NCBI GenBank assembly: GCA_017541325.1
Contig: JAFXZI010000014.1
Location: 45,741-109,740, forward strand
Direction: 5' to 3'
DNA from: Bacilli bacterium
Lineage (GTDB): Bacteria; Bacillota_I; Bacilli_A; RF39; UBA660
DNA: 64,000 nucleotides
The notes under the pieces were generated by a model. It had not been told where the DNA came from. It did no database searches and saw only the letters and a list, made by a program, of their open reading frames with translations. Shown here one piece after another: positions 14,460 to 22,542 of the stretch; within the stretch, counting starts at the first letter, position 1; the number at the start of each line of letters is the position of its first letter. Position numbers and translations under genes: made by a program.

Positions 14460-15812
14460 CTATTTTTTCTTAGTTGTAGTCTTTTTAGTAATTTTATTTT
14501 TTGCTTTAGATTCAAACATATCTAAAACAATTCCTTTATTTTTAATTTTTTCATATATTTTTGGTACATTTTCATAAAGAATAAATTCTCCGTTTACTTC
14601 TTTATTTTCAGTTATACCATGCTTTAAGAATGCAAATATATCTTCAATAATAATATTTTCTCCATCAAATCCAGTTATTTCTGAAATATTAGTAACTTTT
14701 CTTTTACCATCACTTAATCTTTCAACCGATATTACTATATCAATAGCACTATCTATATACCCTCTAATAGCTTTAATAGGCAATTCTACTTCGCTCATAA
14801 GAATCATTGTTTCAAGTCTATTTAATGCATCTTTTACTCCGTTAGCATGTAGAGTGGTTAATGATCCATCATGACCTGTATTCATCGCTTGTAGCATATC
14901 AAACGCTTCTTTACCACGAACTTCACCAACTATTATTCTATCAGGACGCATACGAAGAGAGTTTCTTACTAAATCTCTTATTGTTATTTCTCCTTCTTTT
15001 TCATAGTTTTCAGTTTTAGTCTCAAGTGAAATAACATGTTCTTGTTTAAGACGAAGTTCAACTGCATCTTCAATAGTAATTATTCTCTCATCATTAGGAA
15101 TAGATCCTGAAAGAACATTTAAAAGTGTTGTTTTACCAGAACCAGTTCCTCCACATATTAAGATATTTAATCTTGCTTTAATACAAGCATCTAAGAAAGT
15201 AGCCATATATGGAGTTAATGTACCATTTCCTATTAAACTATCCATATCTTCAACATCATCTCTAAATTTACGAATAGTTACAACTGGCCCCTTTACTGAT
15301 AATGGTGGAATAATAGCATTTATTCTAGATCCATCAGGAAGACGAGAATCTACCATTGGGTTACTACTATCAATAGTTCTACCTAGTGGTTGAATGATAC
15401 GACTTACTGTTCTTATTATATGTTCATCATTAATAAATGAAACATCATAATCACGAGATATTATACCATCTACTTCAATATATATTTCATCAGGAGAATT
15501 AATCATTATCTCTGTTACATTTTTATCTTTTAATAATTCTGTAATAGGTCCAAATCCATTTAATTCATTATTAATAAGATTTTTTAAATAGTCTCTTTGT
15601 TCATTTAAAAGATCATATTCAACTGCAATTCTATCTATTACTTCTTCTATATTTTCTTCTTCTATTTCATGAGAATCAATTAATTCTTGAATAATCTTAA
15701 TACGTAATTTATCAAGTTCTTCTTTATTCTCAAAAATATCATAATCAGTATTAGTATAAGTATTGGAACTATTATCTTCTAAATTGAACTCTTCCATCCA
15801 ACTATTATTCAT
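14460..15812 (-). CDS. tadA: CpaF/TadA-family secretion ATPase
   Basis: 450 aa. Walker [13 protein letters not shown], Walker [13 protein letters not shown], and His box [12 protein letters not shown]. Confidence 0.9.
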
Positions 15813-16563
15813 AATCTTCCTCCTCTACTAAACTACGTATATTATTACTAAATGTTTCATATTCTTTTTTAGCTTCACCAGTAAATATTTCATTAAAATT
15901 AATTATTTTTTCATCCATAACTAATTCATTATAATTATTTATAAATAATTTATTACTTATAGAATAATCTAATTTTTTAATTACTGTTTTTATATCATAA
16001 ATATCATAATTATCTTTAATATCTCGATATGATTTATTTAGTAGTACAACAACATTATCTACTTTCATATTTTTAGTTATAGAAATGAAACTCTTATTAA
16101 TTTCTAAATTATAAGCATCATCTCCAACTATATCTATAATCTTCATACTTTTATCAAAAAGAAGCATATTAAGTGGGCTTAAAGTATTATTTGTATCAAT
16201 TACTATATATTCATATGAATACATTAATAAATCTAAAACTTGAGACAATGCTTTTACATCTATTTTAGATGATAATCTCATATCTATAGGAGCAGGAATA
16301 AAAGATAAGTTATCTCTTACATAATAAGTATATGGAGTAGAACTTTCATATTTTTTATTTCTTAAATCATCACACATATTATAAATAGTCTTTTTAGGTT
16401 TAATACCTAGTGCAAAAGCAAGATTTCCTCCATATAAATCTAAATCTATTAAAAGAGTACTTTTATTTTTACTTAAAATATCTGCAATCATCATTGAAAC
16501 AGTAGTTTTACCTACTCCACCTTTCATAGATGTTACAGTTATTATCTTAGCTTTATTCTTCAT
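15805..16563 (-). CDS. ParA/MinD-type ATPase (CpaE/TadZ-like pilus localisation protein)
   Basis: 252 aa. Deviant Walker A SMKGGVGKTTVS. 8-nt overlap with the ATPase gene. Confidence 0.75.
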   Translation of the reverse strand: MKNKAKIITVTSMKGGVGKTTVSMMIADILSKNKSTLLIDLDLYGGNLAFALGIKPKKTIYNMCDDLRNKKYESSTPYTYYVRDNLSFIPAPIDMRLSSKIDVKALSQVLDLLMYSYEYIVIDTNNTLSPLNMLLFDKSMKIIDIVGDDAYNLEINKSFISITKNMKVDNVVVLLNKSYRDIKDNYDIYDIKTVIKKLDYSISNKLFINNYNELVMDEKIINFNEIFTGEAKKEYETFSNNIRSLVEEEDYE

Positions 16564-17341
16564 CTAACCAACTCCTATTTTTATTATAATTATTTATTAT
16601 ATTATTTTCTGTTAATAACATATCATATGATTTTACATATTTAATATTCTTAGTATTAATAATTAAATCTCCACTTAAATTATCTATTTCTTTTATAAAG
16701 TCTCCATTTAAATATAGACGTGCTTTGTTAGTACCAACTAAATCTATAATATTTCTTTCATTAACTGGACCAATTAAAATATCATTTAAATACAGACTAT
16801 TATTACTTATAAAGAACCTACTATTACCAATCATAAATTGAGTATCATCTAAATTAGTAAAACCAATTTCTAAAGAATAATTTTCTAAATCAAAATTCTT
16901 TATATTAATTACACCATTAATTATGTTGTAGCCTCTACCATCTAAACTATTTACTTCATTATTATTTATTTCAAAATACATTAAAATATTACTTGTATAT
17001 TTTACTTCTTTTTCTGATGTAACAGTATATTTATCCATACCTATAATTTTTCCAAATATAGGTTTTATATCTTTATGCGTTTTTATATAAATAGATCTGT
17101 TTTCTATTTTTACTTCATCTATAACGATATCTTCATCATTTAAACTATATAATAATTTAATATCTTCATTAGAAACATCAATCTTTTTATTTAAACTAGT
17201 TAAAATATCTTTATTAACGTTATCTAAATAATTTTTATTATAAAACATCAAAGATGAATCTATAATAAAAGCTAAAGCAAGTGTAATAATAGGTAGTAAA
17301 AGTAAGAATAATACCAGTACTTGTCCTTTATTATTCTTCAT
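16553..17341 (-). CDS. TadG/TadE-like pseudopilin-type protein
   Basis: 262 aa. N-terminus MKNNKGQVLVLFLLLLPIITLALAFIIDSSLMF resembles the Flp-pilus TadE/G-like N-terminal segment. Overlaps both neighbouring genes by 11 nt. Confidence 0.6.
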   Translation of the reverse strand: MKNNKGQVLVLFLLLLPIITLALAFIIDSSLMFYNKNYLDNVNKDILTSLNKKIDVSNEDIKLLYSLNDEDIVIDEVKIENRSIYIKTHKDIKPIFGKIIGMDKYTVTSEKEVKYTSNILMYFEINNNEVNSLDGRGYNIINGVINIKNFDLENYSLEIGFTNLDDTQFMIGNSRFFISNNSLYLNDILIGPVNERNIIDLVGTNKARLYLNGDFIKEIDNLSGDLIINTKNIKYVKSYDMLLTENNIINNYNKNRSWLDEE

Positions 17342-17684
17342 TATTAATAGTCCTTTCTACTTTAACACTATATGGATCTTTTATTATTCTATTAATTCCT
17401 GGAGTCATTAAATCAACATCTTTAGTAATAATAATTGTTGTAATAGAACCCTTATCAGTAATATCAACATTAATATTTTTGTATCCAATACTAGCTAGAT
17501 ATGACTCTATTTCATCATTATCACTATTCTTTTGATATAGTGAAATAACTTCATTACTAACTCCTTCTAATTTACTATTTTCAAGTATTATTCTTCCTAA
17601 ATCTAAAAATGAAAAGAGAAGTAATATTATTACTGGTAATATAAGAACAAATTCAATAAGTGCTTGACCCTTATTATTCTTCAT
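17331..17684 (-). CDS. TadE-like pseudopilin / candidate pilin subunit
   Basis: 117 aa. MKNNKG|QALIEFVLILPVIILL has Gly-1/Glu+5 and the TadE-type EFxLxxP motif. GGAAGGTG RBS. Confidence 0.7.
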   Translation of the reverse strand: MKNNKGQALIEFVLILPVIILLLFSFLDLGRIILENSKLEGVSNEVISLYQKNSDNDEIESYLASIGYKNINVDITDKGSITTIIITKDVDLMTPGINRIIKDPYSVKVERTINNEE

Positions 17685-17746: not shown

Positions 17747-18898
17747 TTAAATATCATGAATATTTATTGTAGTATCCTCTTCTGTATCTTTTCTAAATAT
17801 ATCTTCTTTTCTTAACCTATAATTACTAATTATTAACTGCTCTATATTTCTATCTAAAGTTATATAATCTTCTCTATGAAGGGTATTTATTACAAGTCCC
17901 CATATATTAGCTTCTTTAATTGGTTTTGTTTTTAAAGAAAGACTATATATTCCTAAAAGATCCATATTAAATAATTCTTCTAAAGTTCTTTTATCAATAT
18001 CTTTTATTTTTCTTAAAACAAAATCATAACTAGAAGATACAAAATGTTCAAATGCTCCTAGTAATTTATCTTTACCACCAATAGTATTTAATAACTGATT
18101 AATAGTTAAAGCAAAGAAATTATAATTTATCTTTCTAAAAGCTTCATTTTTATATAAAGATTTAGGTAATGAATCACTAGCTGGATCAAAGAAATAAAAT
18201 CCATCTGCTTCATATTTAGAATCTTCTATATAAATTACAGAAACATATTCAGTATCATCTCTTTTAATTGGAACAATATAAACAGGAATATTTAATCTAG
18301 ATAATATTTCTTTAAATAGATTATTAAATCCTAAAGAATTAGTTTTTCTAGTTCTAACTATATCTGGTAATCTATCACTACTAGTTCTATCTAAATCAAG
18401 TAATTTAACAAAATCATATACTTCCTTTACCTTTTCTAGAGGTGACATTTTCTTATCAATAGATAATATTACTATATTAATATATTCCTCCATCATTCTA
18501 TAATTTGGAAGAGTTGTTATTTGATAAGTACCATCTTTATAACTATAAGAAAATTTCCAAGAATCAGGATTTTCATAAGGAAAAGATAATAATTCCTTAA
18601 CTTCATCCGGATTATTATCTCTTAAAACTAATTTTTCGACACTACTATCAGTAATCATAGGAGATAATTCTAAAACATGTTTAATTGTTTCTATATCTCT
18701 AACTTGAACCTGATCTCTAAAAGTAACTTGCGCTACTGTATTTATAGAAAATAGCATTTTCTTTACTTCTTCTAAAGTGTCAGCAGTTATAGGGGTGCTG
18801 AAGTCTAGATTGGTAATTCCAATGTATTTTAGTAGTTCTTCATCAATTGTCCCTAAATCGGATTCGAAACCATTTTCCAACTCAAAACACCCTCTCAT
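17747..18898 (-). CDS. hypothetical protein, possibly a degenerate transglutaminase-like fold
   Basis: 383 aa. The segment RKTNSLGFNNLFKEILSRLNIPVYIVPIK...GFYFFDPASD has the layout of a transglutaminase-like core, but with Ser in place of the nucleophile Cys and no obvious His. No SD; it starts 10 nt after the ddl stop. Confidence 0.5.
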   Translation of the reverse strand: MRGCFELENGFESDLGTIDEELLKYIGITNLDFSTPITADTLEEVKKMLFSINTVAQVTFRDQVQVRDIETIKHVLELSPMITDSSVEKLVLRDNNPDEVKELLSFPYENPDSWKFSYSYKDGTYQITTLPNYRMMEEYINIVILSIDKKMSPLEKVKEVYDFVKLLDLDRTSSDRLPDIVRTRKTNSLGFNNLFKEILSRLNIPVYIVPIKRDDTEYVSVIYIEDSKYEADGFYFFDPASDSLPKSLYKNEAFRKINYNFFALTINQLLNTIGGKDKLLGAFEHFVSSSYDFVLRKIKDIDKRTLEELFNMDLLGIYSLSLKTKPIKEANIWGLVINTLHREDYITLDRNIEQLIISNYRLRKEDIFRKDTEEDTTINIHDI

Positions 18899-18908
18899 AA
18901 TTATTGTT

Positions 18909-20099
18909 TTACTTTAAATTTTTAACCCCTTTAGTACCTTTAGCACCTTTTAATCCACTAAATCCACTTAAAATATTAGTATCAAATGAATTTATTTTAC
19001 CAGTTTTCTTTTTATAATCTTTAACACCTATGTTAATTAATTCATCAAGAAGTTCAGTATAATTCTTTCCAGCTGGTTCCCATAAATAGAAAGCTAAACT
19101 TCCAGGAATTGTATTAACTTCATTAATATATACTTTTTTCTTTTTATTATCGATTAAGAAATCTATTCTTACATCTCCACTTAGGTTAAGAGCTTTGCTT
19201 GCTTTAACAGCAATGTCTCTAACTTCACTAGATAATTTTTCTGATATATCAGCAGGAATCTTACGAGTAGCAGAAAGCATTCCTTTACTTCCACTACCTT
19301 TCTTTCCACCAACATATTTATCTTCATAAGTAAGAAGTTCATTACCAGTTAATACTCTTTCAATTACACTAGTATCATATCCATCAGGATTTCCTACAAC
19401 ACTAATATTAACTTCGCAAAGATTTTTAATTACTTCTTCTACAACAATCTTACTATCATATGTAATAGCTTCTTCTACTGCTTTTTGTAATTCTTCACGA
19501 TTACTTGCAATATTTATACCTACAGAACTACCTAAAGTAGCTGGTTTAACTATTACTGGATATTTTATTTGTTCTATCATCTTTAAAACCTTTTCAGGAT
19601 TATCTTCATATTCAGAATCAAAGAACCATACATATTCAGGAATTGGTAATCCTTCACTACCCCAAATTTGTTTTTGGAATACTTTATCTTGTCCAATAGC
19701 AGCTCCTGCAATGTCACTTCCTACATATGGAATACCAATTGTTTTTAAATATCCTTGTAAAACTCCATCTTCAACATTAGTACCATGAACAATTGGAAAA
19801 GCAATATCTATTTCTTTAACTACTTTTCTAAATCCTTTCTTACTTTGAAGAACAAATGAACCATACTTATTACGATATAGTACTACATTTTTACCATACT
19901 TTCTAAGTAGACTCATATCTTGGAATGTTTCTATTTCATTTAAGAAGCTTCCTGTATACCATTCTCCATTTTTATCTATATAAATAGGTACTATTTCATA
20001 TTTCTCAGCATCCATTTTATTCATAGCTTGAATAGCTGAAATAATACTTACTTCGTGTTCAACACTTTCTCCACCAAATATAACTCCTACTTTTATCAT
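18909..20099 (-). CDS. ddl: D-alanine--D-alanine ligase (long form)
   Basis: 396 aa ATP-grasp protein with MIKVGVIFGGESVEHEVSIISA, PYVGS and INEVNTIPG. The omega-loop EDKY Tyr is retained, followed by a Gly/Lys-rich insertion. Confidence 0.88.
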   Translation of the reverse strand: MIKVGVIFGGESVEHEVSIISAIQAMNKMDAEKYEIVPIYIDKNGEWYTGSFLNEIETFQDMSLLRKYGKNVVLYRNKYGSFVLQSKKGFRKVVKEIDIAFPIVHGTNVEDGVLQGYLKTIGIPYVGSDIAGAAIGQDKVFQKQIWGSEGLPIPEYVWFFDSEYEDNPEKVLKMIEQIKYPVIVKPATLGSSVGINIASNREELQKAVEEAITYDSKIVVEEVIKNLCEVNISVVGNPDGYDTSVIERVLTGNELLTYEDKYVGGKKGSGSKGMLSATRKIPADISEKLSSEVRDIAVKASKALNLSGDVRIDFLIDNKKKKVYINEVNTIPGSLAFYLWEPAGKNYTELLDELINIGVKDYKKKTGKINSFDTNILSGFSGLKGAKGTKGVKNLK

Positions 20100-20111: not shown

Positions 20112-21752
20112 TTATTTTTCGTTATATGTATCAGGTAAATCATTTTCAAATAATGCATATATTTTTTTCTTAGTTTTCATACTATTAAGTATCATATAAG
20201 CTTTAGTAACATCATTTATTATTTCAATATCTGATTCTTTAAAACCTTTTTCTTTTAATCCTTCAAGTATAGGTTTTGTTTGTTTTTCTCCAACTAGTAT
20301 TACATGATCTGCAACTTCTGCTATATCCTTACCAAATTCTTTATTATAGTATTCTTCTTTATCTCCTAATTCTATCATTCCAGGAGTAACAACTACTTTA
20401 TATCCATCCATCATATTAAGGACTTCTAAAGCTCTTTTTGATCCTTCTGGATTAGAATTATATGCATCATCTATAAATACAAATTTTGGAAAATTCTTCA
20501 TACTTAAACGATGTTCAATTGGTTTTAATCTACCAACTGCTCTTTGTAAATGTTCTACATTGATTCCAAGTTCATAACCTAATGCTAAACAAGAAATAAT
20601 ATTATAAACATTATGCTTTCCAAGAAGTCTTGTTTTAAACTCATATTTCTTTTTATCACCTTTAAATTCTACTGTAAATGTTGTTCCTTCATGATTAACT
20701 TTAATCTTACTAGCACGTACATCAACATCATCTTTAGTATCTATTCCTACCCAAAGTAGTTTACAATGATTTTTATTTTTAAATTTATAATTCTTTTGTT
20801 TTTCATCATCTCTATTTAAAACTCCAACTCCATCTTCTGGTAGATATTCAATTAATTCCATCTTTCCTGATTGAATATTTTCTTCACTACCAAATGTTTC
20901 TAAATGAGCTGTACCAATCTTTGTAATTATTCCATATTTAGGATTTACTAGTTTACATAGTCCATTTATTTCACCTTTAACATAAGCACCCATTTCTGCA
21001 ATAAATACTTCATCAAATTTAGATAATGAATTATTTACTGTTATCATAAGTCCATTAAAAGTATTTAGACTTTTTGGAGTAGCTAGTACATTATATTTTT
21101 CACTTAAAATCTCATTTAAAAAGTTCTTAGTACTAGTTTTTCCATAACTTCCAGTTATTCCAACTACTTTTAAATTTTCCATACTAGCTAGTTTTCTTTT
21201 AGCTTTTTTTTCAAAATGTCTATATACAAAATACTCTATTGGTTTATTAATTAAATAAGCAATATATACTACATAATAATTTAGTACTGACATAACAGAT
21301 AATAATATTATAGAATCACATAAACGTGGAAAATCTATTTTAGTATCTACTAAGATAAATTGTACTGTAATACCTAAAGCACAAACAATAAGATGTAATA
21401 ATATTAAAGTAGCTATAAGTCTTTTAATTCTTGCAGTATATACTAATGGTTTCTTATTTTTTTCCTTCTTTTTCTTTTTTTCTTTTAATAGACAATATCC
21501 ATATAAAATAATAATTAAAGCAAGGAAATAGTAAGAAATTAAAGTATCAACACATAAAGCAAATAAAGAAACGAAGATGATTCCATATATATCTATGTTG
21601 GTAAACATTTCTTTTTTATTCTTCCATACCCATTTTAAGTATCTATTGTTCTCATTATATAGATTTTGCTGAAGCATATGTAATGCCCTTCTAGTTTTTA
21701 ACATTGAATAGATAAAAACTATTGCCATTGTCACATAAATTCTAATTAACAT
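20112..21752 (-). CDS. murF: MurF-type Mur ligase (UDP-MurNAc-tripeptide--D-Ala-D-Ala ligase) with an N-terminal polytopic membrane domain
   Basis: 546 aa. Residues 1-~185 form four or more hydrophobic helices. These are followed by the P-loop GITGSYGKTSTK and the MurF C-terminal motif IDDAYNSNPEGSKRAL...PGMIELG. AGGAGG RBS at the first ATG; ddl is adjacent. Confidence 0.8.
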   Translation of the reverse strand: MLIRIYVTMAIVFIYSMLKTRRALHMLQQNLYNENNRYLKWVWKNKKEMFTNIDIYGIIFVSLFALCVDTLISYYFLALIIILYGYCLLKEKKKKKEKNKKPLVYTARIKRLIATLILLHLIVCALGITVQFILVDTKIDFPRLCDSIILLSVMSVLNYYVVYIAYLINKPIEYFVYRHFEKKAKRKLASMENLKVVGITGSYGKTSTKNFLNEILSEKYNVLATPKSLNTFNGLMITVNNSLSKFDEVFIAEMGAYVKGEINGLCKLVNPKYGIITKIGTAHLETFGSEENIQSGKMELIEYLPEDGVGVLNRDDEKQKNYKFKNKNHCKLLWVGIDTKDDVDVRASKIKVNHEGTTFTVEFKGDKKKYEFKTRLLGKHNVYNIISCLALGYELGINVEHLQRAVGRLKPIEHRLSMKNFPKFVFIDDAYNSNPEGSKRALEVLNMMDGYKVVVTPGMIELGDKEEYYNKEFGKDIAEVADHVILVGEKQTKPILEGLKEKGFKESDIEIINDVTKAYMILNSMKTKKKIYALFENDLPDTYNEK

Positions 21753-21761
21753 AAGTACCTC

Positions 21762-22490
21762 CTATACAAATTCATTAATTATATTAGTAACTTGATTTAA
21801 GTTTTCTAAATAAGCATAATGTGTTGAGTTAGGTAGAATTATTAAAGCAGCATCTTTAAATAATTTTTCTGTTTCTTTAGCTTCTTCTATACTAACTTCA
21901 GTATCATTATCTCCCCAAATTAAAAGTGTTGATGCAGAGACCTTTTTAGCACAATCTGATAAGTCTTCATTAACTGTCTTAACAAGAATATCTCTCATCA
22001 TTGGACTTGCAGCTTTATAATCTCTACTTCCAATATGACGTTTTGCAAATCCTTCTAATTTATTTAATCCTGGAACCTTTTTAAGTTTCTTTAAGATTCT
22101 AACTTTTAAACTAAGTTTCTTTTCTTTACGAATACAAGGACTTCCAAAAAGAATTAATTTATCTACATCATTACGTGATGCATAAACTATACTAATCCTT
22201 CCTCCAAATGAATGACCTATCATCGTAGGATTTTTTACTTTTAACTCGTTTAATAATTTTTCTACAACCTCATTGTAATCATAAATATTCATTACTTCTT
22301 TAGGTTCATCAGATCCTCCAAATCCAGGAAGATCAATTATTATTATGTGATATTTATCTTGTAGTCTATCAGCAAGAGGTCTCATCATTTCTATATTTTG
22401 TCCCCAACCATGTAAGAATACTAATGTCTTACCTTTTTTATTACCATATTCTTTATAATTTATGTCTATATCATTAATATTAAGTTTCAT
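21762..22490 (-). CDS. alpha/beta-fold hydrolase
   Basis: HGWGQN oxyanion region and the nucleophile elbow GHSFGG. I place the start at ATG 22490 (GGGTG RBS), because the ORF-track N-terminal extension overlaps a terminator. Confidence 0.8.
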   Translation of the reverse strand: MKLNINDIDINYKEYGNKKGKTLVFLHGWGQNIEMMRPLADRLQDKYHIIIIDLPGFGGSDEPKEVMNIYDYNEVVEKLLNELKVKNPTMIGHSFGGRISIVYASRNDVDKLILFGSPCIRKEKKLSLKVRILKKLKKVPGLNKLEGFAKRHIGSRDYKAASPMMRDILVKTVNEDLSDCAKKVSASTLLIWGDNDTEVSIEEAKETEKLFKDAALIILPNSTHYAYLENLNQVTNIINEFV

Positions 22491-22513: not shown

Positions 22514-22542
22514 ACAAAAAAAGGTTTAAATACAAACCTTTT
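22514..22542 (-). terminator. rho-independent terminator after yqeH
   Basis: Stem aaggttt/aaacctt (22521-22527/22534-22540) followed by a 7-nt T-run on the minus strand. Confidence 0.7.

Follow-up and report, generated by a model that had tools for sequence, protein, structure and literature searches.

This report concerns an open reading frame (ORF) at positions 20112 to 21752 on the minus strand of a stretch of 64,000 nucleotides (nt) from a Bacilli bacterium of the RF39 lineage (assembly GCA_017541325.1, contig JAFXZI010000014.1, positions 45,741 to 109,740 of the forward strand). This stretch is called the window throughout the text and has a G+C content of 26%. The coordinates refer to the window unless another locus is named, and the residues of the encoded protein of 546 amino acids (aa) are numbered from the ATG at position 21752. 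The ORF encodes a Mur ligase of the MurF type, in which the canonical N-terminal domain 1 is absent and a five-helix membrane domain stands in its place; it is referred to here as membrane MurF. The gene lies in a cassette between an alpha/beta-hydrolase gene and ddl, and no second Mur ligase is encoded within the 64 kb of the window. A first-pass annotation, made from the letters of the window, described a continuous ORF with an ATG and an AGGAGG ribosome binding site overlapping the stop codon of the upstream hydrolase gene, and this was borne out by reading the sequence (start codon ATG at 21752-21750, minus strand). The gene, its Shine-Dalgarno sequence and the elements of the N-terminal domain are given below, where TM stands for transmembrane helix, AF2 for the AlphaFold2 model and pLDDT for its predicted local distance difference test.

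20112-21752, minus strand: membrane-embedded MurF, a single intact ORF of 546 aa plus stop codon
21758-21763, minus strand: Shine-Dalgarno sequence AGGAGG, 5 nt before the ATG and overlapping the TAG stop codon of the hydrolase gene (21762-21764)
21696-21749, minus strand: TM1, residues 2-19, from hydropathy, AF2 (helix 2-31, pLDDT >90) and the positive-inside pattern, with the N-terminus outside
21597-21695, minus strand: cytoplasmic loop 1, residues 20-52, with the motif LHMLQQNLYNENNRYLKWxxKN, or more loosely LHMLQQNLYNENNRYxxWxxxN (residues 24-45, nt 21618-21683)
21486-21596, minus strand: TM2/TM3 helical hairpin, residues 53-89, from hydropathy and AF2 (helices 55-66 and 72-95), almost uncharged in all members
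21414-21485, minus strand: cytoplasmic loop 3, residues 90-113, with a lysine-rich stretch and the motif QNKKPLVxTxRxKRL (residues 98-112, nt 21417-21461)
21243-21413, minus strand: TM4/TM5 helical hairpin, residues 114-170, from hydropathy, AF2 and the alignment
21174-21251, minus strand: cytoplasmic stalk helix, residues 168-193, which prolongs TM5 without a break, with INxPxE and AKxKL (AF2 helix 158-190)

Residues 192-546 form the central and the C-terminal domain of a MurF-type Mur ligase, and the P-loop follows shortly after the membrane region, in agreement with the first-pass annotation. The elements of this ligase part are the following.

21126-21161, minus strand: P-loop GITGSYGKTSTK, residues 198-209, with G201, S202, G204, K205 and K209 invariant
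20580-21158, minus strand: Mur ligase central (ATP-binding) domain, residues 199-391 (PF08245 Mur_ligase_M, E-value 5.8e-41)
20184-20513, minus strand: Mur ligase C-terminal domain, residues 414-523 (PF02875 Mur_ligase_C)
20124-20147, minus strand: C-terminal family signature ENDLPDTY, residues 536-543, beyond the end of canonical MurF alignments

The conservation of the protein was followed in an alignment of 64 close relatives and in an alignment of the wide family, which comprises 36 members down to 34% identity. The residues known for Mg-binding are retained in the wide family, with E253 invariant and H283 present in at least 90% of the members. The C-terminal domain contains the MurF-type motif DDAYNSNP (residues 428-435, nt 20448-20471) and the sequence TPGMIELG (residues 456-463), which had already suggested a MurF-like C-terminal part; in the wide family N434 is invariant and R415, D429, N432 and P435 are conserved to at least 90%. 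The C-terminal signature reads ENDLPDxY in the wide family, L534, D538 and L539 being invariant and E536, N537 and D541 conserved to at least 90%. Among the NCBIfam models the best match is TIGR01143 murF with 238 bits, the next ligase type being MurE with 87 bits, and the alignment runs from residue 192 onward and covers model positions 72-385 of 418 leaving positions 1-71 unmatched. Moreover, the best PDB sequences are MurF enzymes, and the alignments with these structures cover parts of the Acinetobacter baumannii (4qdi, residues 118-416), Escherichia coli (1gg4, residues 100-393) and Thermotoga maritima enzymes (3zl8, from residue 70). Similarly, Foldseek matched MurF structures over about 365-371 columns, i.e., over the ligase part only, and also listed MurT. 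With BLASTP the protein shares 34% identity with a canonical Bacillus MurF, starting at its residue 193 and at residue 105 of the Bacillus enzyme.

The N-terminal domain (residues 1-190), hereafter N-domain, consists of five hydrophobic helices arranged as TM1, a TM2/TM3 hairpin and a TM4/TM5 hairpin. At least four hydrophobic helices separated by lysine-rich loops had been proposed for residues 1 to about 185, and this was corroborated by hydropathy, by the AF2 model and by the charge pattern, which together give five helices. The Kyte-Doolittle plot shows hydrophobic segments at about residues 1-19, 49-90, 107-139 and 144-168, and basic loops rich in lysine and arginine at residues 20-52 and 90-113, the second of which includes KEKKKKKEKNKKP, separate the helices. 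For the full-length protein, AF2 with an alignment of 64 sequences resulted in a pLDDT of 87.4 and a predicted template modelling score (pTM) of 0.78. Within residues 1-190 this model contains helices only (2-31, 37-44, 46-50, 55-66, 72-95, 107-136, 142-156 and 158-190), the first predicted strand starting at residue 195, and the N-domain modelled alone was likewise all helix (pLDDT 89.4, pTM 0.81). The charges could be scored in 23 of the 36 family members. In these, loop 1 carries 3-9 and loop 3 carries 5-11 lysine plus arginine residues and both hairpin regions are almost uncharged. By the positive-inside rule the N-terminus is therefore placed outside and both loops together with the ligase domains are placed in the cytoplasm, which agrees with the need of an ATP-dependent ligase. 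The C-terminal half of the stalk helix is the counterpart of the linker helix located in front of the central domain of canonical MurF. The alignment with 3zl8 begins at residue 181, corresponding to chain residue 70, and of the stalk only the last approximately 10 residues can be aligned with this canonical linker. The outer turn connecting TM4 with TM5 contains an insertion of 10 residues, FILVDTKIDF (residues 132-141, nt 21330-21359, minus strand), which the 18 relatives aligned with it lack.

Canonical domain 1 is absent from membrane MurF. No Pfam match, including PF01225, was obtained for residues 1-198, and the control, a canonical Bacillus MurF of 458 aa (locus L095, 8689-10065), shows PF01225 at residues 26-101 followed by the central and the C-terminal domains. 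A profile of the N-domain aligned by hhalign with residues 1-110 of the same Bacillus MurF resulted in a probability of 0.35%. A remnant of domain 1 within residues 100-190 was considered and rejected based on the missing PF01225 match, the unmatched first positions of TIGR01143, the all-helix AF2 model and the hhalign result. For the fold or family of the N-domain itself, Pfam returned nothing and the profile search against the PDB returned only rhodopsin with an E-value of 0.25. The loop 1 sequence ALHMLQQNLY (residues 23-33, nt 21654-21686, minus strand) resembles SALQMLAKNY (L095, 8959-8988) in the linker helix of the canonical Bacillus MurF, a similarity that is not significant.

The N-domain is less conserved than the ligase part, as the mean column conservation is 0.66 for residues 1-185 and 0.83 for the remainder. 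The sequences of the transmembrane helices vary, and three cytoplasmic juxtamembrane motifs, located in loop 1, in loop 3 and in the stalk helix, are almost fixed. In loop 1 the residues M26, Q28, Q29, N30, Y32, N33, E34, N35, R37, W41 and N45 are invariant in the 64 close relatives; in the wide family, where the motif reads HMLQ[QL]NSYRxxRY, Y32 stays invariant and Q28 is conserved to at least 90%. In loop 3 the same holds for K100, K101, V104, T106, R108, R111 and L112 among the close relatives, with R108 and R111 invariant and T106 conserved to at least 90% in the wide family. In the stalk, P171 and E173 are invariant and A184 is conserved to at least 90% in the wide family. Together these cytoplasmic elements amount to about 70 residues and are similar in size to the lost domain 1, and since the helix formed by TM5 and the stalk is continuous they are predicted to lie beside the central domain. 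As the conserved parts are the cytoplasmic loops and not the helices, the N-domain is more than a tether and probably has a part in substrate or partner binding. The first-pass annotation had interpreted the protein as a membrane-tethered MurF that may lack domain 1. Integral membrane localization and loss of the domain both stood up, and the term "tethered" turned out to be too weak in view of the conserved cytoplasmic loops.

The unusual architecture raises the question of an artefact, i.e., of a murF truncated at its 5' end that a frameshift or mis-assembly has fused to the gene of a membrane protein. Errors are easily made in the A-rich run that encodes KEKKKKKEKNKKP, and some database entries show the N-domain as a separate short protein. 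However, in 84 of 84 loci from independent assemblies a single tblastn high-scoring segment pair spans the membrane and the ligase parts, and the fused ORF is intact in 88 loci with lengths of 515-546 aa. Furthermore, the 120 best database homologues have 529-546 aa, and the query coverage is at least 98% for 111 of them and 94% at the lowest. The apparently separate N-domain proteins (P0194 and P0236) were rejected as stand-alone genes, as they go back to frameshifted genes of long-read assemblies, where ddl and the neighboring genes are likewise broken, and the other entries consisting of the N-domain only are gene fragments on short contigs. Such false stand-alone proteins derive from the ENA long-read contigs L093 and L094 of AT-rich genomes, where frameshifts split murF, ddl and the neighbors. 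A frameshift separating a membrane protein from MurF, which the first-pass annotation had named as a refuting observation, was thus not found, the possibility of an artefact was rejected, and the probability that is left for it is practically negligible. An internal start giving rise to a soluble ligase was rejected too. Of 88 related loci, 82 have a Shine-Dalgarno core in front of the main ATG, whereas for the internal methionine close to the domain border this is true of only 1 locus in 79, and a soluble isoform is therefore not expected.

A large group of gut Bacilli, uncultured and with small genomes, has membrane MurF as its norm, and the form is also spread through the Bacillota. A scan with two N-domain motifs against a collection with one genome per species (185,579 species) resulted in 361 confirmed stretches, and the best 80 of these 361 are all from gut metagenome-assembled genomes (MAGs). 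The titles of these 80 records include uncultured Bacilli, Clostridium sp. CAG:710, Mycoplasma sp. CAG:877, uncultured Erysipelotrichaceae, Tenericutes and Mycoplasmatota, names which we take to stand for small-genome Bacilli of the RFN20/RF39 type, and one of the 80 is a complete chromosome of 1.31 Mb (OZ006981.1). An exhaustive hidden Markov model (HMM) search with the N-domain profile revealed 1063 clusters at 50% identity with an E-value of at most 0.001, and 370 with an E-value of at most 1e-10. All full-length HMM matches are 515-565 aa long and carry the N-domain at the N-terminus, and no other architecture was seen among them. Among the named members are MAGs of Clostridia, Christensenellales and Bacillales and moreover cultured Bacillaceae and Paenibacillaceae, namely Evansella halocellulosilytica, Pseudalkalibacillus sp. 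SCS-8, Alteribacillus spp. and Gorillibacterium sp. Most source labels read UDP-N-acetylmuramoyl-tripeptide--D-alanyl-D-alanine ligase (UDP, uridine diphosphate) and a few read "Mur ligase middle domain protein" or "Mur ligase family protein". A full-text literature search resulted in no description of a polytopic membrane MurF, most of the matches being the muscle protein MuRF. The suspicion that this might be the common and already described form in the lineage therefore held for its first half, as the form is common and automatically annotated as MurF; for the second half, the literature search yielded no description. The architecture is real, widespread and under selection.

The membrane murF gene is translationally coupled to the hydrolase gene and to ddl, and this cassette is conserved across the Bacillota. 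The gut Bacilli uniformly share the order alpha/beta-hydrolase, membrane murF and ddl with nine diverse loci, which come from Clostridia, Bacillales and cultured species. Out of 90 loci, about 85 have the hydrolase gene immediately upstream of membrane murF, at a median gap of 9 nt, and about 85 have ddl immediately downstream of it, at a median gap of 11 nt. Several overlaps of 4 nt occur within the cassette, and the stop codon of the hydrolase gene often overlaps with the start of murF. In the window ddl starts 12 nt downstream of membrane murF, being indeed the next gene, as had been noted. The two partner genes in the window are the following.

21762-22490, minus strand: alpha/beta-hydrolase, first gene of the cassette (Pfam Abhydrolase_1/6 and Hydrolase_4), likely start ATG 22490
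18909-20099, minus strand: ddl, third gene of the cassette, 396 aa (NF002528, 307.7 bits at a cut-off of 262; TIGR01205, 270.4 bits at a cut-off of 245.65)

The hydrolase is predicted to be catalytically intact, as judged from its Ser (GHSxGG)-Asp-His triad, which is kept in the nine diverse loci. It is generically lipase/esterase-like with EstV lipase as the closest NCBIfam model (154 bits, below the cut-off of 300) and with 6i8w, 4opm and 10xn as PDB matches. Read mechanically, the hydrolase ORF reaches to a TTG at 22535, which adds a hydrophobic leader of 15 residues; the aligned part of the homologues begins no earlier than the ATG at 22490, the likelier start. The cassette Ddl scores far below the cut-offs of the VanA, VanC and VanG models, its best PDB match is the Staphylococcus aureus Ddl (2i87) and it retains the omega-loop DKY with the tyrosine of the D-Ala-D-Ala type. 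In the nine diverse loci it forms its own long subfamily of 391-408 aa, distinguished by an omega-loop insertion after DKY with [SA]KGM, by a shortened PGSL[AS]FYLWEP segment and by a C-terminal tail F[ST]xD[ST]N[LI][LF]S...GxKGxK. These elements may serve for docking or may alter specificity.

At locus L086, in a MAG of the Bacillales, genes for a DEAD helicase and a rhomboid protein and acpS, ydcC, alr and mazEF come after the cassette, and in Bacillus sp. N5-665 the same genes follow the canonical ddl-murF pair. Due to this identical neighborhood, the cassette in L086 stands in place of canonical ddl-murF. As it occupies the canonical slot there, as membrane MurF is the sole Mur ligase in the window and as the carriers include the genome of 1.31 Mb, the gut Bacilli with small genomes probably rely on it as their housekeeping MurF.

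Compared to canonical MurF (EC 6.3.2.10; TIGR01143; 1GG4, 4QF5, 4CVM, 3ZL8), with which it shares 26-34% identity, membrane MurF has in common the central and the C-terminal domain, the P-loop, the Mg-binding glutamate and histidine, the DDxYNxNP motif and the pairing with ddl. It differs in that the soluble alpha/beta domain 1 (PF01225) is exchanged for the five-helix domain with its own cytoplasmic motifs, in that GDMxELG is changed to PGMxELG and in that the C-terminus ends with ENDLPDxY. Moreover, the gene order is ddl-murF in the canonical case and murF-ddl plus a hydrolase gene in the membrane form. The poly-gamma-glutamate synthetase PgsB/CapB is another member of the Mur-ligase superfamily without a UDP-binding domain, and an N-terminal hydrophobic segment holds it at the membrane; it differs from membrane MurF by its single anchor, its FPGS-like character and its other substrates. 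No PgsB model was found among the NCBIfam matches of membrane MurF. Natural chimeras of Mur enzymes are known as MurD-FtsW, MraY-MurG and MurE-MurF, the latter without the N-terminal "cap" of MurF (PMC10214165). Like membrane MurF, the chimeras represent a Mur enzyme joined covalently to another component, sometimes a polytopic membrane protein, of the pathway. However, they join two recognizable enzymes and keep the N-domain of the ligase, whereas the added domain of membrane MurF matches no known family or fold and replaces domain 1. The survey that described them included only proteins of more than 600 aa (PMC10214165) and would therefore have missed membrane MurF with its 515-565 aa.

We favor the interpretation that membrane MurF is a D-Ala-D-Ala-adding ligase of the MurF type, which acts at the inner face of the membrane and uses UDP-N-acetylmuramic acid (MurNAc)-tripeptide as acceptor, and we assign to this interpretation a probability of roughly 60%. 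The adjacency of ddl and the tyrosine kept in the omega loop of its product connect the enzyme with D-Ala-D-Ala. The cassette Ddl would provide D-Ala-D-Ala, and the ligase domains would use ATP to activate the terminal carboxylate of the MurNAc-tripeptide precursor and would then add the dipeptide as in canonical MurF. The juxtamembrane module, comprising Q28/Y32, K100/K101/T106/R108/R111 and P171/E173 and perhaps the acidic C-terminal ENDLPDxY tail, might replace domain 1 by holding the (pyro)phosphate-nucleotide "handle" of the acceptor. With UDP-MurNAc-tripeptide as acceptor, the product would presumably leave the enzyme at the surface of the membrane, beside MraY. Several observations weigh against this interpretation. 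Membrane MurF lacks two hallmarks by which MurF membership is judged: domain 1 is missing and the TIGR01143 score of 238 bits stays below the curated cut-off of 288.6, so that by the NCBI rule the protein is not a trusted member. The contact of the loops with the active site is a prediction from the topology only, and the upstream hydrolase has no assigned part in the proposed role. Furthermore, the omega-loop insertion of the cassette Ddl is conserved and has a possible bearing on product specificity. In large Bacillaceae genomes the context of the cassette varies and in Evansella, for example, it lies beside CRISPR-Cas; due to this variation an accessory copy with a specialized role would fit. 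Finally, in Pseudalkalibacillus sp. SCS-8 (CP143541.1, locus L089, 12976-15965), one of the nine diverse loci, a Peptidase_M15 gene of the VanX/VanY type and a gene for a class B penicillin-binding protein (PBP) come behind the cassette, an arrangement resembling a van cluster.

The main competitor of a UDP-linked acceptor is a lipid-linked one. In this case D-Ala-D-Ala would be added to undecaprenyl-pyrophosphoryl-MurNAc-tripeptide, i.e., to a tripeptide form of lipid I/II, and the basic loops would bind the lipid pyrophosphate. The part that was replaced is exactly the one that holds uridine and pyrophosphate, and the conserved residues of the new module are basic and located at the membrane surface. 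MurT provides a precedent, as this homologue of the Mur ligases does without an N-terminal domain for uridine binding and acts on lipid I/II and not on UDP-linked precursors (PMC6085368). MurT of the MurT/GatD complex resembles membrane MurF in this respect and in acting at the membrane stage, it appears among the Foldseek matches of the fold, and the partner hydrolase is of the lipase/esterase type (EstV, 6i8w, 4opm), which would also suit a lipid-linked substrate. However, MurT is soluble, contains a DUF1727-type C-domain and a Cys-rich insertion, works with the glutaminase GatD as partner and amidates D-Glu, whereas membrane MurF has a Pfam Mur_ligase_C domain instead of DUF1727 and is neighbored by the hydrolase and Ddl without a glutaminase. 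Its ligase part is MurF-like and not MurT-like. Moreover, a lipid-linked acceptor demands that MraY routinely transfers the tripeptide precursor, of which there is no sign in the data, and we regard this alternative as unlikely. It is similarly doubtful that the last step of stem-peptide synthesis was moved from the cytosol to the membrane, with the five-helix domain and its basic loops binding the undecaprenyl-pyrophosphate of a lipid-linked acceptor in place of UDP and with the long Ddl and the lipase-like hydrolase docking to form a membrane complex that adds D-Ala-D-Ala.

The variable contexts mentioned above lead to another alternative, in which the cassette would be a second Ddl/MurF set that exists beside canonical ddl-murF and serves for an altered dipeptide (D-Ala-D-X) or for special conditions such as antibiotic stress or sporulation. 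Such an accessory pathway would be in accordance with a divergent Ddl of its own carrying the conserved omega-loop insertion and the C-terminal tail, with the non-canonical contexts in cultured Bacillaceae and Paenibacillaceae and with the M15 peptidase and the class B PBP behind the cassette in Pseudalkalibacillus. Against it speak that the Ddl passes the D-Ala-D-Ala ligase cut-offs, with the Van models far lower and the omega-loop tyrosine kept, that the M15 adjacency is limited to this one of nine diverse loci, that the cassette occupies the canonical slot in L086 and that it is present in reduced genomes of 1.3 Mb, where redundancy is unlikely. In addition, the plasmid database PLSDB contains no record at a coverage of at least 80%, leading to the rejection of a plasmid-borne resistance cassette. 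An accessory role of this kind is therefore rather improbable. Still less probable is that the N-domain is a pure anchor, which merely localizes a self-sufficient two-domain ligase, for example to the divisome or elongasome, and contributes nothing to substrate binding. The poor sequence conservation of the transmembrane helices would fit to an anchor, and fusions of Mur enzymes with membrane proteins are known (MurD-FtsW, MraY-MurG; PMC10214165). However, five helices are more than an anchor needs, three near-invariant cytoplasmic motifs are kept over 34-49% identity, and the known membrane fusions retain the canonical N-domain, which membrane MurF has lost.

With a ligase at the inner membrane face that accepts UDP-MurNAc-tripeptide as the preferred interpretation, membrane MurF bears on the common picture of the pathway. 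In textbooks MurC to MurF are soluble cytoplasmic enzymes, and it has long been debated whether they form a membrane-associated complex handing precursors to MraY. Here, a whole branch of the Bacillota has fixed MurF in the membrane and discarded the domain thought to hold UDP, and in the abundant uncultured small-genome gut Bacilli this form dominates. This raises the questions of whether domain 1 is dispensable for MurF chemistry, how the acceptor is recognized without it and whether stem peptides might be completed on lipid-linked precursors. The cultured carriers in Evansella, Alteribacillus, Pseudalkalibacillus and Gorillibacterium make these questions tractable. Moreover, both the design of MurF inhibitors and automated annotation assume a soluble enzyme with three domains.

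Two further features of the window lie downstream of the cassette. Directly behind ddl an ORF of 383 aa is located (17747-18898, minus strand), for which neither Pfam nor NCBIfam gave a match; the loci of gut Bacilli keep it in place with 30-55% identity, and those of Clostridia or Bacillales do not have it in this position. It is followed by a gene set for a Tad-type pilus (14460-17684, minus strand) including an ATPase of the T2SSE family (14460-15812), and two adjacent TadE-like ORFs in this set (16553-17341 and 17331-17684) share the N-terminus MKNNKGQxL.

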